A stretch of 63,995 nucleotides of DNA, the filler included, from Atractiella rhizophila (lineage: Eukaryota): the NCBI GenBank assembly GCA_021432655.1. It is 4 parts of 4 records of this genome, joined end to end, with 100 filler letters (N's around TTAATTAATTAA, not from the genome) between each part and the next. Parts side by side here need not be neighbours in the genome. Positions count along the whole stretch, not along the records: positions 28,610 to 37,467 come from MU271490.1; 3 more parts are not named here. One strand, written 5' to 3'. This document shows, piece after piece, positions 28,510-49,181 of the stretch (positions are counted from its first letter, which is position 1; the number at the start of each line of letters is the position of its first letter). Below the pieces are notes generated by a model. The model did not search any database, was not told where the DNA came from, and saw nothing but the letters and a program-made list of their open reading frames with translations. Made by a program: the position numbers and the translations under genes.

Positions 28510-28609
28510 NNNNNNNNNNNNNNNNNNNNNNNNNNNNNNNNNNNNNNNNNNNNTTAATTAATTAANNNNNNNNNNNNNNNNNNNNNNNNNNNNNNNNNNN
28601 NNNNNNNNN
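28510..28609. other. Artificial contig linker (N44-TTAATTAATTAA-N44)
   Basis: Exactly 100 bp. The core at 28554-28565 has stops in all six frames. The same structure occurs at 37468 and 45647. Confidence 0.95.
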
Positions 28610-29573: not shown

Positions 29574-31053
29574 TCATATTGCTAGCCCTAGAAACGGTCC
29601 CATCTTGCCTTCGACCTGATGCTCGAGATAACGATCTGTCAGCTTGGGAATCTGTGGAACCGCCTGTATCTGAAATTACTAGTTACAACCAGTATCAATC
29701 GGACAAGTTCTGACAAGAAAACGTTCTGCTTACTTTCTTCCTCCTTGATGATATACTTGGAGATTCCTCGTCCCATCCCGAAATTCCTCGACGGCGTCCC
29801 TTCCACAGGCGAGAACTGCCCTGAGCCTCTGGCTGGCATTTCAATGCGTACCTCTTCTTTCGGGAGAGAAGGCCACGTTGAAGATCCTCTCAACCACGAT
29901 TTCGTTCGACCGGGTGACTTCCGAAGTGGTGTGCTTACTGCTTGACTTTGTACGGTCTGCTCCCCACGATCGGGCCCACTGAGGAGGATGACGAGAAAGG
30001 AAACGGAGTAGATCGAAGGTAGGATGGTGACCATGAATAGACTCCAAGCCGCCTGGTCGGACCCTTCGACACCCTCCCAGATGGCCAATGCGACGACGAC
30101 GGCTTGTGCAATCCAAAGTAGCGTTCCGCTACAGATGATATACACAATGATGTTGTCGATAATGCTTCGCACGCGCACGGATGTGGCGGTCAAAGAGCTT
30201 TTCGCGTTCCGAAGTTCGGCGACAAGGAAGAATGACAAGCTGACATCGACCACCAACGAGACAGTAATCCAACTGGTGAGGATGCCTTCAAATCCCTGCA
30301 AATGGCTGATTATCCCAAACTTGAATATGATAAACATCCCGCCAACGATTCCAAGTGGCACATTCAGGACAGTGAAGATGAACGTGATCCAAAGGACGGT
30401 TTTCACCCACATCTTATCCCATGTCACAAGTTTGCTCAGTTGCAAGCCACCTGTGAGCCATTCAACGCCTCCGCAAGGAGAAGGAAGAAGGAGAAACATA
30501 CGGTACCAGATAAAGAGTTGGCACTGGGCCTGGAGCAAAATTGTTGTGACACTGAGTATGGCGTCGGCCCATTCGTCTCCTGGCTTCAGGAAATAGTTCA
30601 CGTCGCCCCAATGAGCAGCATGGAGGAGAGAGAACTGTAGACTACAATCTTAGCACTTGTAAACAGAGGAACATACGACAATTCACCTTTGTGACGCCAG
30701 CAACGTTCATGAGGGTTTGTAAGAAGACGACAAATGCAACTATCCATTTCATCTTCTCGAACGTTTTGCCCTTGGCCAGCCTGAAGTAGCGATTTGCGAG
30801 CGCGACGATGATGCCATACAATATACAACAAATGAATGTACCCAGCAGACTTGCTAACAGCCGATTATGCTGGTACGACAACGGAGCTCAGTCCACGAAC
30901 CTGAAAAGAAAAAGACCTCACATAATTTGGCGGCAATCGTGAGAAGATCTCATCCGTGGTGCCATCTTCAGTTGTGACATTTGTATCATGACTAGATATT
31001 GTGGTGACGATCGGAAAAGCTGACAATCCGCGTGTATGAAGATGAAGACCCAT
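29574..31053 (-). CDS. DUF6534-like 7-transmembrane (fungal GPCR-like) protein
   Basis: About seven hydrophobic segments: LLGTFICCILYGII...YF, KWIVAFVVFLQTL, QLFIWYRMF, WITVSLVVDVSLSFFLVAEL, IIDNIIVYIICSGTL, LPSIYSVSFLVIL. Both ends are approximate. Confidence 0.7.
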
Positions 31054-32689: not shown

Positions 32690-35600
32690 TTATGGCGCCA
32701 TCATCATGGCGTCCGCATTTTCCTCTTCGATTGTGTCCAAAATGGCTTTGATAATTCTTCCACCTTCCTCAGCTAAATAAGACGAGTTTCAGCATTACAT
32801 GCTGCAGCGAAAGAAGGTAGACAGACCAATTTCCCATCGGCTATCCTTGATAAGCTCCCAGATGGTATGCAACAATCCAGCAATACCATTCAAGTCGTCC
32901 ATTTGTGGGAGAACTACAACCGAAGGTGAGGAGATTCTCTTGGTTCATCAATAAACTCACTGTCGGGAGATTGTGTGCACAAGNNNNNNNNNNNNNNNNN
33001 NNNNNNNNNNNNNNNNNNNNNNNNNNNNNNNNNNNNNNNNNNNNNNNNNNNNNNNNNNNNNNNNNNNNNNNNNNNNNNNNNNNNNNNNNNNNNNNNNNNN
33101 NNNNNNNNNNNNNNNNNNNNNNNNNNNNNNNNNNNNNNNNNNNNNNNNNNNNNNNNNNNNNNNNNNNNNNNNNNNNNNNNNNNNNNNNNNNNNNNNNNNN
33201 NNNNNNNNNNNNNNNNNNNNNNNNNNNNNNATAGGGAGGAGTTCCTTTACATCCACAACCTGCTGTCAGCTCGCACTCGTGTTTATGCCCTTGCCTTTCG
33301 CTAGGGAGCGGCAGTTGCTCGTCCCGTTGTTACGGAAAGAGGGGATGGTGATTAGTCGACGGAGAGAAGAGCGGATGGAGCCCTTCAGTTGTCTAGGAGC
33401 AGTGCTGGTGGCGGTCACCTTACGGTCAGCACCATTGATCGCGTCCGTGCTGGTAAGGGTAGTGATGACGCTGAAGCTAGCGTCAGGGGTAGCGAGTCGG
33501 CTACCCTTTGCCTGGTATAGGGGTAGGGATGCCGCGACCAGGAGAGGGTCAAAGGTACTAGGGAGAGGGATGATGATGTGGCGAGGGTTACGGACCTCCC
33601 TGACATGGTCAGAGACAAGGTCAATTGCATAGGGGCTGCTGCCGCTGCCGACCTTTACCTAACCTTAACGTCAACCCTCACCCTCCACCTCCTCATCATC
33701 CACCGCCTTACCCTTTACCTTACCCTCCTGGTCAGCCTCCAGGACCTGTCCTAGTTCTGGGAAAGAAGCTGGGAAAGAGGAAGCCTCCCGTGTTGCTACC
33801 ATGCAGCAGAAAGTAGAAAGAAGAGTAGTATGAGGTAGGAAACGCAATGTACGAGTAGATTACCTACACTTCGTGGTAAACGGAGACGATAGCTGGAAGT
33901 TACCGAAGACCTACCATAACCGCTGTACTTGCTGGGCAGGTTAGGCTTACGGCGCGCCTATAACCTCTTAAAGGTCTACGGCGGATTGTACAAGCTAGGA
34001 AGCTACCCGTACTTCTTATGTTTATGTGGTGGATCGCAACCTCTCCCTTCGTTACGCTCGTTATTCTCGAGTGGAACAAATGGTATGTACTACCTTGGAC
34101 AAGGTCATGCAAGTAGCGAACTTCTCTACCCTCACTACAACTTACACTTTATCCTGCTGCGCGGCGACTTCTCTCTCCTGGGCTGGTGCAAACACCTAGT
34201 TTAGTGAAAAGTCTCCTAGTAACTAATAGAGAGACATTCAAGTAACGGAGGAAGAGATAGCTTCTCGACTAGTCTTTAGTAGCTTCGGCTCATAGGGTTA
34301 CCAGTAGTTGGTAGGCTTTGATTGAGGTGTTAGATAAGTTGAGATGGACGTGGAGATAACCTGAGCGCACGTACTTTGAGTTAAGGGCTAGTAGGTGTTT
34401 CGTTGTAAGTCCACGCAGTAATATAACGTGCGCGATGGGATCCGTCTAAATTTATTACGTCCTGCCTTTGTTGCGGCTGCGGCGATAATACGAGGTACAA
34501 GGAGAAACCTACAATAATACGGCTAGACCTCCGCGTGTGCTACCGCTTCTAACACGTACTTTTTAACGCTCCGTACTAGTAGACGCAAGCTTAAAAATAA
34601 GGAAACATAACATAAGTTGATTATTACAACTACTTGTCAGCCTTGTAATGCACGGTGCCCGTCTTTACACCGAAAAGGTCCGACAAAATGAGACATAGTA
34701 TAAACCCTTCTACACGAGGCTAGCTTCCGCGTACTTTACCAGAGGGGGAAGAAGTGACGGCAAACTTGTTATGACTGATTGGTGGTAGATTTCTCAGTAT
34801 AAAAGACCCCTAGGCATCACTGCCATACTAAGCGTAAATTTGTGTCCTAAAGGTCAACTTCCGTTATATGTCGATCGTGCGTCCTCGCGCGACAAGAGAG
34901 GGTTTAGTCAACGTCTCTAACTGTTAGTGTTTCTGTTTCGACTACGTTCTACCTCACTCAGAGGGAACCAAGTAATGACTACGTAGTTAGGCTAACAACT
35001 GCTTACTGTAGGTCCTCGTACCTAGCGTCTTCTTAGTCGTTTTGCTACACGGAAGAGCCGAAAAGATTAACTGCATCTCGTGCGGCGGTAGAAAGCAGTG
35101 TGAGGGTGCGAGAGTCGTAAGGTCGAAGTCGAGTGGGACGGGAGACTACTCTCGCACACCTGCCGGTGTAGTCAATCACTCACCTTATCCTCCGTAGTAC
35201 GACGAGCTGGTGGTGATGGCAAGTAGAGACCATGCATGCGAGAGAGCAATGTCGTCTCTAGTTTTTGCTGACACGCTATTGACAAATGGACATCGTGAGT
35301 TCCGTAGGTACTAAGGGCCCGTAAGAGGCGGCCAAGACTTACGCAAGAGCTCCTAAAACTAGGACGTACCTGAACACTCAAGGAGAGGTTACGTAGGACC
35401 TGTCTTGATTGGTACCACTTATCTACTCACAGAGCAAGCTATCACGCGACAGGTAGAAGTTGTGACCTTACCGAGATTGTCATAGAGGACTGTCACGTTA
35501 CCGCTCTAGTGAAATACCAGAAAGGGGGTAAAGAAGGGCTTTTCTAGAAACGACTACTCTTACTTAGAAATGTCGAACCTTAACGTTGTGGTCTGCCCGG

Positions 35601-37278
35601 TTGTTTTCTAACCGCGCTCTACTACAGACGTCGCATATTGACAACCTTTCGGGCTGATCTATGGTCAGACTAGTTGAGCTTCATAGGGCTGAGCGTCGAA
35701 GAGGCCTCGAGTTATAGCTACATACGCTAGCGGGTGTATCAGGTTCCTCAACTGCAGGTGCTTGAGGTTTAAACCCGACATTCGTTTGACGGTCCGATGA
35801 CTTGGGTAGTTAACTTCCGCGACTTACCCTGTCCCACGCCTTTCTCGAGACCCAGAGCGGCAACGGGGTCGACAGCACCTCCGATGTTTCTGTTCCTAAA
35901 AGAGAACCAGCAGTTGTTTTCTTCCGTCCGTCCGTTGTACCGTGAGACGAGTAAAGAATGCCATATATATACCAGCGGAAACCAAAATAGGCTTAATGTT
36001 GGGGCCTGGACGCCTGTATATCCTATGCGCTTGAGAGGATCGTTCGGCGGTCTACCCGGGGCTAACGGAGCCTGAAGTGGTAGTCGACGAGGATCCATAC
36101 TCGCTGGCTGAGGAGGGATAGCGCCGGGCATGATGGATGCTGATGAGGGCGGTATGGAAGCGTTGATTCGCGGGATATTGGCGAACTGAGCGGTAACAGC
36201 TTGAGCCTCGCGTTCCCGACGATCATGTCGCTCGGCGTGGCGTATCAGTAGGTCAGCTTTTAGATTGGAAGAAGGACAAGTCGGCGGAGGAGTTGGAGAA
36301 GGAGCGGTCCGGGAAGACCAGCGAAGTGCGGGGAAGGAGGGTTGTGCATGCATGGTCAGGATTCGAGTTCGGAGGAGAGAGGAAGCGGAGACGACTCACC
36401 ACGAACGAAGACTTTGGCACAACGGTCGCAGCTGTATATCTGGCTTGGAGTATCTGCATCCAGTTGCTTCATCAGTATTGATGCAACGACTAGTTAAATG
36501 AAGGGAGACGAACGATTCAGTCGGTGTCTACTCAAGTGGTCCGGTCTTCACGTAAACAAAGTCGTCAACATTCTGCTTGAGTGCGATAGGATGAGAAGGG
36601 AAGTACCTGCTAAAGACCTTCCCACATCCCTTTTGTCCCAACCCATCAACGATGCAATGAAATTGAGAGAAACGAAGTGCAGACCTCCCAAGTGCAAGGA
36701 AACTTGCGTCCATTGCCAGCATTCGAGTTTCTCCTCCTCCTTTTCTTACTTCCCTCTTCGACCATCTCGTCCTCTTCCTTTTCCACGCTTCCAGCACCAC
36801 CGCTTCCATTCCCACTTCCACCTGCAACTCCATTCCCATTCCCATTCCCCATACCCATAGCATTATCCGAGGCCATACCCTCTGCAAACTCATTCACGGT
36901 ACCATTCCTATGAGCTGACAACATCGAATCTACGCTCCCAGACTGAGGCTGCTGAGGAGGGAGACCAGTGAGGGACGCAGGAACATGTTGTTGGCCGTTC
37001 TGCTGGTTCTGCTGGAAGTTGGACATTGGAGCGAGTGCGAACTGATGGGGGTGAGTGGGGGATGGACGCTTGGGTGGGGTTGGTCCAAGTGAGTCACGCA
37101 TCGGCGATATCACGGTATCCCTCCTTCGTTTATCAGTCGGCGTATCAGCCTTTCGAAATCGATTATCAGTGCTCAGACGCTGGAACGAGGACAGATTGCA
37201 GGACTGAGACTGATAGGGGAAGACAGAAAGTTGGCTGGAGCCGAAGTCTGACAACCGTGAATGTGCGAGTTCATTCAT
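32690..37278 (-). CDS. C2H2 zinc-finger + Fungal_trans transcription factor (YPR022C-like); middle part mirror-written in the assembly
   Basis: Two spliced fingers, CTWEGCGKVFSRPDHLSRHRLNH and CDRCAKVFVRADLLIRHAERH, lie at about 36220-36700. The Fungal_trans domain is recoverable only from the un-reversed complement of 33231-36108. The C-terminus (LNGIAGLLHTIWELIKDSRWEI...DAMMMAP*) lies at 32983-32690. The start codon is uncertain. Confidence 0.85.
32984..33230. other. Assembly gap (247 N)
   Basis: Run of N inside the C2H2 TF gene, abutting the mirror-written block. Confidence 0.99.
33231..36108. other. Reversed-but-not-complemented (mirror) sequence block
   Basis: The complement read left to right gives exons and canonical introns continuing the TF (IPPQGNVGVGRQ..., LYWTRVHETQFPIIHKATF, WIAEESAKRCAFSAFLIDVEHAAIFRH, LPSDESVW). 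33231-33242 ATAGGGAGGAGT is the exact reverse of 36109-36120 TGAGGAGGGATA. Confidence 0.95.
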
Positions 37279-37467
37279 TTCATCTTTCCAAGCCTCGTGC
37301 AGGTCCTGTTCATCACCTTCAATCAACGAAATCGATCATGATGGAGATAATGTCGGACAATCTGTTGCACCCTCTTCTTTGACCTTCATTCGAAACAAGT
37401 CACACACAAGCTGGCGTCAACAGAACATACAATAATCACTTTCCTCGGTTCAATCATACCGCGGCCG

Positions 37468-37567
37468 NNNNNNNNNNNNNNNNNNNNNNNNNNNNNNNNN
37501 NNNNNNNNNNNTTAATTAATTAANNNNNNNNNNNNNNNNNNNNNNNNNNNNNNNNNNNNNNNNNNNN
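37468..37567. other. Artificial contig linker (N44-TTAATTAATTAA-N44)
   Basis: Same 100-bp structure, with the core at 37512-37523. Confidence 0.95.
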
Positions 37568-45646: not shown

Positions 45647-45746
45647 NNNNNNNNNNNNNNNNNNNNNNNNNNNNNNNNNNNNNNNNNNNNTTAATTAATT
45701 AANNNNNNNNNNNNNNNNNNNNNNNNNNNNNNNNNNNNNNNNNNNN
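45647..45746. other. Artificial contig linker (N44-TTAATTAATTAA-N44)
   Basis: Same 100-bp structure, with the core at 45691-45702. Confidence 0.95.
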
Positions 45747-47543: not shown

Positions 47544-47993
47544 NNNNNNNNNNNNNNNNNNNNNNNNNNNNNNNNNNNNNNNNNNNNNNNNNNNNNNNNN
47601 NNNNNNNNNNNNNNNNNNNNNNNNNNNNNNNNNNNNNNNNNNNNNNNNNNNNNNNNNNNNNNNNNNNNNNNNNNNNNNNNNNNNNNNNNNNNNNNNNNNN
47701 NNNNNNNNNNNNNNNNNNNNNNNNNNNNNNNNNNNNNNNNNNNNNNNNNNNNNNNNNNNNNNNNNNNNNNNNNNNNNNNNNNNNNNNNNNNNNNNNNNNN
47801 NNNNNNNNNNNNNNNNNNNNNNNNNNNNNNNNNNNNNNNNNNNNNNNNNNNNNNNNNNNNNNNNNNNNNNNNNNNNNNNNNNNNNNNNNNNNNNNNNNNN
47901 NNNNNNNNNNNNNNNNNNNNNNNNNNNNNNNNNNNNNNNNNNNNNNNNNNNNNNNNNNNNNNNNNNNNNNNNNNNNNNNNNNNNNNNNNNNNN
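47544..47993. other. Assembly gap (450 N)
   Basis: Run of N that removes the 3' end of the glyoxylate reductase gene. Confidence 0.99.
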
Positions 47994-49181
47994 TTCCAAT
48001 ATGCTATCGAATCCGCATGAGCACTCAACGTGAAGAAAAGGAAGGTGTGAAACAACTCACAGGGAAAATGACGCATCTAGGCAGCTTCCCCAGACCCTCG
48101 CTCCCCTTCACATTCGGTTCTCCCTCGACCACATCCAGACCAGCACCCCATATCTTTTCCTCCTTCAAAGCAGCCTCTAAAGCTTTATTGTCGACTATCG
48201 GTCCTCTAGCAATATTGACCAACACCGCCGTCTTCTTCATCCTCGCGAGGAAGACTTCATCTACAAGGTGGAACGTCTTTTCGTTCAGACTGCATCCGAC
48301 GATCAACACGTCGCTCTCCACCGCCAACCGGTCCATCGAATCCACCGGCGTCAGTTTCCCGTCTTGAAGAGAGGGATGGGAGAGCAGTCCGTAGTGATCG
48401 GAAGAGGAAGAAAGTGGGGAGCCAAGTTGGGGAAGTTGTGTAGATGGCGCGGGAGATTCCGAAGGGCAACAAGCGGAGGAGGAGCGCTTGGGATATGCGT
48501 CCAAAGCCTAGGAAGCCTACGGTCGCTTTGGAGAGTGAAGGCCCCCAAAGCATCTCGGGAGACCAAGGAGTGACAGGCCACTGTTGGTCATACAACCTTC
48601 CGTGTAAGAATATTGCAGTGAATTGGTGTATTATGGAGGACGAACCCTGTCTTCCTGCACGAGCCGGATTGCTTCTCCTGCTCGCCTCATTGCTGCCAGA
48701 ACGAGGAGCACGCCGAGATCTGCGACTGCATCCGTGAGGACGTCTGGAGCTGGGTGCGACTCCACTTGTTAGTTACGTCAATGATTGATGGAGGAGGGAA
48801 CGGCTCACTGACTCCCAAACGAATATTCCTCTTCTTCAGAGCGCCAATGTCAATGTGATCGAAGCCTGCAGACATGGTGGAGACGACCTTAAGGGACGGC
48901 CCAGCCTTGTCCAAGAACTCTTCGTCCACCTATGAACTCACATATCCATCTTCAGCACTTAATACAAGGATTGATTGAAGACTCGCCTTCTCAGTCAGGG
49001 TCAAAGCTACGCCCTCTGCGCCGTGGATGTTCTTCAAGAGCCATTCGCGATCGCATACCTTGTCCTCTGGCTCGGGATAGATGATCAGGTCGAGATCGGC
49101 GGCTTCTTTGAGCAGGGAAAGCCCTTCAGAGGGGATCTGGCGCGCTACGACGACCTTGTGCTTCTGCTTTCCCGGCGCCAT
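47994..49181 (-). CDS. Glyoxylate/hydroxypyruvate reductase (D-2-hydroxyacid dehydrogenase), 3' end in gap
   Basis: AGPSLKVVSTMSAGFDHIDI, TPDVLTDAVADL, TVGFLGFGRIS, MKKTAVLVNIARGPIVD, WGAGLDVVEGEP. Confidence 0.92.

Follow-up and report, generated by a model that had tools for sequence, protein, structure and literature searches.

Draft genome assemblies can contain orientation errors and misjoins, such as inverted contigs and mis-oriented gap fills, which are computational faults that arise at a contig edge beside a gap, misplace real content and break gene models. An ordinary orientation error yields the reverse complement of the true sequence, which still translates and still finds its matches by BLAST. 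Here we analyse a stretch of 63,995 nucleotides (nt) from the fungus Atractiella rhizophila (assembly GCA_021432655.1), hereafter the window, which joins four parts end to end. At 33231–36003, within the part taken from record MU271490.1, lies a block that resembles such errors in all of these respects but differs from them in being a plain reversal, unseen by alignment and by six-frame search. The block is almost certainly an assembly or finishing artefact, in which the true sequence left of 36004 was stored in reversed order without being complemented, and it hides most of a gene for a putative transcriptional regulator. In those portions of the full-text literature that could be viewed, no description of assembly blocks reversed but not complemented was found.

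Among the transcription factors of fungi, an architecture with C2H2 fingers at the N-terminus and Fungal_trans (PF04082) in the middle region is common, and the classical C2H2 finger (PF00096) has the spacing C-x(2-4)-C-x12-H-x(3-5)-H. The gene obtained here by re-ordering the block resembles factors of this kind in two N-terminal fingers recognised by their spacing, a motif matching PF04082, an extended low-complexity linker and numerous short introns. It differs from them in that its PF04082 match falls below the Pfam threshold and that no homologue was retrieved.

Extent of the block and its right border

The block occupies 2,773 nt and represents the true plus-strand sequence left of 36004 with the order of its letters reversed and no complementing. 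Put another way, the letters are those of the sense strand of the gene, set down 5′ to 3′ from left to right and each replaced by its complement. The base that truly touches 36004 stands at 33231, and the farthest base stands at 36003. As written, the block starts directly after a run of 247 N (32984–33230), which is the remaining gap, and there is no N at its other side; in real order the gap adjoins the letters now at 36003, not those at 33231. Between the left flank of the gap and the reversed block, no exact end overlap of at least 8 nt was found.

Contigs from four public runs (X1–X4, representing at most three samples) were compared with 33231–37467. These contigs fit 36004–37467, and one of them (X1 record 1) follows 36004–36560 with no other letters. 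Six of the seven rows of loose ends, spread across X1–X4, are located at 36003/36004. Leftwards of 36004, the consensus of these loose ends is the plain reverse of the first 30 nt of the block, with agreement at 30 of 30 positions in X1 and a one-place shift or one differing letter in the remaining five junction rows, and the letters actually written at 35974–36003 are unrelated to the contig continuation. A spliced contig that resembles complementary DNA (cDNA; records 17–19) also crosses the junction into normal-order sequence. Independent data cross the border, in short, with the reversed text and not with the written one.

The preliminary description of this locus had placed the right end of the block at 36108. 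Since the contigs switch to the reversed text only before 36004, while those of all four runs match 36004–36560 as written, the border has to be moved to 36003, where the scrambling stops.

No X1–X4 contig covers 33231–36003, and this absence was not counted as evidence. The best two public runs contain 0.29 of the sampled words, where about 0.35 would be expected from 36004–37467 alone, and no RNA runs for 33231–37467 appeared among the matches listed.

Order of letters tested by Markov models

Real DNA is asymmetric under plain reversal. Markov models were fitted to the remainder of the window, both strands included, and the score of each stretch was compared with that of the same letters in reverse. 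Reversal improves the fit of the block by 0.058, 0.060 and 0.066 bits per base at orders 3, 4 and 5, respectively. Each of the 18 equally long control tiles favours the written order (mean −0.043, standard deviation (s.d.) 0.0085, maximum −0.027), which places the block about 12 s.d. from the controls. Reversal restores the oligonucleotide statistics of the genome in the block and spoils them in the control tiles.

The same contrast was seen at finer scale. Segments of 400 nt were positive for reversal in 24 of 24 cases inside the block (minimum 0.040) and in 5 of 581 outside it (maximum 0.013). The sign of the score flips around 35930–36040, in agreement with the border derived from the contigs. 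The flanks of the other N runs in the window gave no reversal signal, and the six further N-delimited pieces of the window are all free of scrambling.

Coding content of the block

As written, the block contains 53, 50 and 53 stops in the three plus-strand frames and 55, 53 and 48 in those of the minus strand, and none of its 11 open reading frames (ORFs) of at least 60 residues has a Pfam match, which bears out the earlier observation that neither written strand codes sensibly. By comparison, ORFs elsewhere in the window match LRR, RRM, RFC, Exo70, DUF6534, DAO, 2-hydroxyacid dehydrogenase and annexin families, together with an NUBPL-type ATPase and a fungal PH-like domain. A true inversion does not account for the block: its reverse complement has 55, 53 and 48 stops per frame and no Pfam match, and the contigs give the plain reverse.

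The complement read from left to right behaves differently, with 44, 20 and 28 stops per frame. It opens with a 209-residue frame starting IPPQGNVGVGRQ, in frame with exon 5 of the gene on the right, and it contains all three motifs that had been quoted in support of a coding complement. To read the block through, at least 10 GT..AG introns are needed in the complement and 13–16 in the other three orientations. Among 30 shuffled versions, 29 needed 12–18 introns and one had no path.

A hand-curated model with 11 GT..AG introns of 48–73 nt within the block, close to the 'about a dozen' canonical introns first estimated, keeps the reading open for 952 residues as far as 36003, one of them an X at a possible frameshift. 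The lengths and ends of these introns resemble those of the four introns supported by contigs outside the block, and re-ordering restores the continuity of the gene with its normally written flank.

That flank contains the first five exons, the fifth in part, all on the minus strand, which are fixed by X3 record 19, a contig that lacks four GT..AG introns. The coding part of exon 1 (36685–37026) was taken from a chosen ATG (MSNFQQ...); an upstream in-frame ATG is possible. The spliced contig reaches 37157. Exon 2 (36607–36629; 23 nt) follows from the spliced contig, with the joint 36628/36684 read with a cut of +1, and exon 3 (36514–36545; 32 nt), from the same source, carries the helix of the first C2H2 finger. 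Exon 4 (36400–36453; 54 nt), where the second finger starts, is delimited by the joints 36256/36400 and 36453/36514 of X3 record 19 and by the translation. The normally written part of exon 5 (36004–36256), identical to X1 record 1 with no other letters and covered by X3 record 19 as far as 36058, completes the second finger and adds a Pro/Gln-rich linker. The stretch 36004–36108, previously counted into the block, belongs to it. From 36256 the exon runs down to 36004, and its frame carries on unbroken in the complement of the block.

When the N-terminus is joined at the splice sites supported by contigs, two fingers appear with the spacing C-x(2,4)-C-x12-H-x3-H. The unspliced frames gave no C2H2 match with hidden Markov models, as expected for fingers cut by introns. 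Within the block, a motif of 27 residues in the complement read left to right (35020–35100) matched PF04082, Fungal_trans, as its sole family (E value 4.8e-4, 19.7 bits, profile positions 143–170 of 262). The earlier assignment of Fungal_trans motifs is supported in part: PF04082 was the only family matched, but the score lies below the Pfam cutoff of 23 bits and was obtained with a 27-residue motif. The sequence supports, on this basis, a predicted gene combining C2H2 fingers with a Fungal_trans-type middle region.

Left of the gap, normally written open frames on the minus strand at about 32690–32944 would provide the last two exons and the stop codon; judged by sequence, they are probably the last exons of the same gene. 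The complete re-ordered gene would then lie on the minus strand and encode two C2H2 fingers at the N-terminus, an extended Pro/Thr/Gly-rich linker and a Fungal_trans-type middle region; it would have some 15 short introns and end beyond the gap.

In the three-frame print of the re-oriented reading, an apparent change from frame 1 to frame 0 is seen inside an exon at 34716–34727. The change is required with the first AG (34793) as the end of the following intron, but a GAG acceptor at 34795 would make it unnecessary. It may represent a 1-nt deletion in the filled sequence. This one possible frameshift was the sole basis on which the sequence had been likened to a raw long read, and we do not retain the comparison. 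Two automated models, one that only minimised introns and one based on codon usage, were mis-spliced in several places and were replaced by hand curation. A run of the latter that permitted frameshifts chose none, but did so by way of an implausible intron of 143 nt.

The X4 run, labelled as probable DNA, contains a contig of low depth (2.6) that lacks intron 1, with the joint 36628/36684. Carried-over cDNA, a library with the wrong label or a processed copy may account for this contig.

Searches for relatives and a public protein from the locus

Searches for relatives of the normally written parts of the gene were negative. Exon 1, searched among longer proteins, gave 968 candidates, none of which scored; exon 5 gave 9 candidates and none scored; the probable C-terminal exon gave 72 candidates, with none scoring at E values up to 10. 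A metagenome scan with exon 5 produced 598 pattern matches and no confirmed locus. A HMMER search with exon 5 against 1.84 billion representatives returned just P0001 and a low-complexity match, P0002.

P0001, a protein of 314 residues, is not a relative but a gene prediction made from the scrambled text, because tblastn places it on the minus strand as written with 100% identity. Its footprint is 33269–36353 on that strand, residues 1–175 corresponding to 36353–35829 and residues 185–314 to 33658–33269. It starts within intron 4, and about 84 of its residues are real (36256–36004, exon 5), the rest being nonsense. The preliminary description had foreseen that automated annotation would go wrong at this gene, and P0001 is an instance of it, a chimeric model now standing as a singleton in public protein collections.

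Origin of the block

Contig loose ends, Markov scores, continuity of the frame, the PF04082 match and P0001 all agree with the central proposal that a reversal without complementing, next to a gap, hides a C2H2/Fungal_trans gene. We consider it nearly certain that the block is an artefact of assembly or finishing and does not represent a biological structure. Most probably, a gap-closing or finishing step would have lengthened the contig starting at 36004 towards the left, into a gap some 3 kb long, and the extension would have been pasted in the order in which it grew, leaving 247 N over. In the same step, a minus-strand read may instead have been complemented but not reversed, which would give an identical text. 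The layout matches a pasted extension: the block occupies the correct place, adjoins 36004 with no N between them, and the leftover N lie on its far side. Gene prediction on the written text gave rise to the nonsense protein of 314 residues.

The joins at 28510–28609, 37468–37567 and 45647–45746 consist of the spacer N44-TTAATTAATTAA-N44, which has stops in all six frames. This makes the window a pseudomolecule in which contigs were put in order, as opposed to one continuous assembly. It also contains two plain N runs (32984–33230 and 47544–47993).

A somewhat unlikely, though credible, variant of the artefact is that the block was a separate small contig in minus orientation which a scaffold builder, or a person working by hand, complemented instead of reverse-complementing. 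The outcome would be letter for letter the same as that of a mis-pasted extension, and a window that is a chain of contigs with spacers implies software that placed and oriented contigs. Yet the block and 36004 are not separated by any N, unlike the other joins here. A general fault in handling minus contigs is also unlikely given that the other six N-delimited pieces are unscrambled (about 1.6% by estimate, if half of them were minus).

Much less probable is the form in which the artefact had originally been proposed, with a block reaching to 36108 whose first 12 nt are a duplicated overlap to be merged. The observation behind it is sound, as the first 12 nt of the block are the exact reverse of 36109–36120, at length 12 only, and merging them yields ...IPPQ followed by GNVGVGRQ in frame. 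The reading of this identity as an overlap fails, and the repeat is genuine. The contigs of four runs match 36004–36108 as written, with no other letters, and the spliced X3 contigs contain this segment; the complement frame that codes up to 36003, if continued, meets a stop at 36020–36022. Moreover, chance matches of 12 nt to the window are expected for the block (BLAST E value 8.7), there being 7 with the reversed block and, with the written block, one 12-nt match plus two 13-mers.

Because 36004–36108 is normal DNA, TGAGGAGGGATAGC occurs twice in the real sequence. The two copies form a 14-nt direct repeat in the re-ordered DNA, 117 nt apart. One copy is at 36109–36122 (no strand assigned) and the other, which ends at the junction, is made up of the final 12 nt of the re-ordered block and of 36004–36005; both positions are found in the re-ordered contig, and the X1 contig has both copies. 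Both encode AIPPQ in the same frame, giving ...AIPPQ, 34 residues and AIPPQGNVG.... The merge, which looks like the obvious repair, would remove 117 real coding bases, or 39 codons, and the repair as proposed would also place the complemented 36004–36108 at the far end of the gene.

That the strain really carries this gene segment in mirror order is extremely improbable. Nothing besides the assembly text itself favours it, and we know of no replication or repair process that copies DNA reversed without complementing. At the junction the independent contigs are in normal order, a spliced, cDNA-like contig (records 17–19) crosses into normal-order sequence, and a mirror block would destroy an otherwise intact, expressed gene. 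Chance, by which the open frames and motifs of the complement would be coincidences in non-coding DNA, is the least probable account of all: counts of strict donor hexamers do not separate the orientations, but the match of 30 out of 30 loose-end letters, the distance of the block from the Markov controls, the 209 residues in frame with exon 5 and a motif whose only Pfam match is PF04082 dismiss it.

Several points weigh against the interpretation of the block as a reversed part of this gene. The direct check by contigs spans just 30 of the 2,773 letters, and the remainder rests on statistics and reading frames. The runs X1–X4 may not derive from the assembled strain, though X1 is identical over 557 nt. 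Strict donor hexamers fail to single out the complement (10, versus 12 in the reverse complement). The 19.7 bits of the motif are below the 23-bit cutoff of Pfam, and that scan covered its 27 residues only. Homologues were absent from all searches, and the gene model was built without homology guidance. The step that made the error is not visible from the window, where no other gap flank shows such a reversal.

Consequences for curation

The biology of the locus is not new, since the gene would be an ordinary regulator of the C2H2/Fungal_trans type, and the value of the case lies in curation. In this record, BLAST, six-frame translation and gene finders all miss a real gene of about 1,000 residues. 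A cheap screen is available, which asks whether a stretch fits the genome's own Markov model better when reversed; it separated the block from all controls and is usable across a whole assembly. It is possible, though we think it unlikely, that the same finishing step also reversed the text of further incompletely closed gaps, in this assembly and in others from the same pipeline. In that case, reversed stretches elsewhere would hide genes from alignment-based checks and seed databases with nonsense proteins, and the reverse-versus-forward Markov score would find them without a reference.

Variant forms and neighbouring features

The X1 and X2 contigs fork into two variant forms at 36003–36087, 36531–36709 and 37128–37288. 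In the second of these intervals, the forms show 12 differences and a 1-nt gap in 178 nt. Their appearance suggests two haplotypes, as in a heterozygous or dikaryotic fungus. The split at 36003–36087 (records 9, 10, 17 and 18) coincides with the contig edge at 36004, and the divergence of the public contigs into two variants would give a reason for the original contig to end there.

In the same part of the window as the block, an open frame on the minus strand at 29642–30649 matches DUF6534 (E value 2.5e-6), a family typical of mushroom-forming basidiomycetes. Taken with the many introns of 50–70 nt, this match suggests that such a fungus is the source of the window. The second plain gap of the window, 47544–47993 (450 N), has flanks in normal order, with Markov z scores of 0.0 to 0.8. 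It adjoins a split 2-hydroxyacid dehydrogenase gene on the minus strand (48028–48772).

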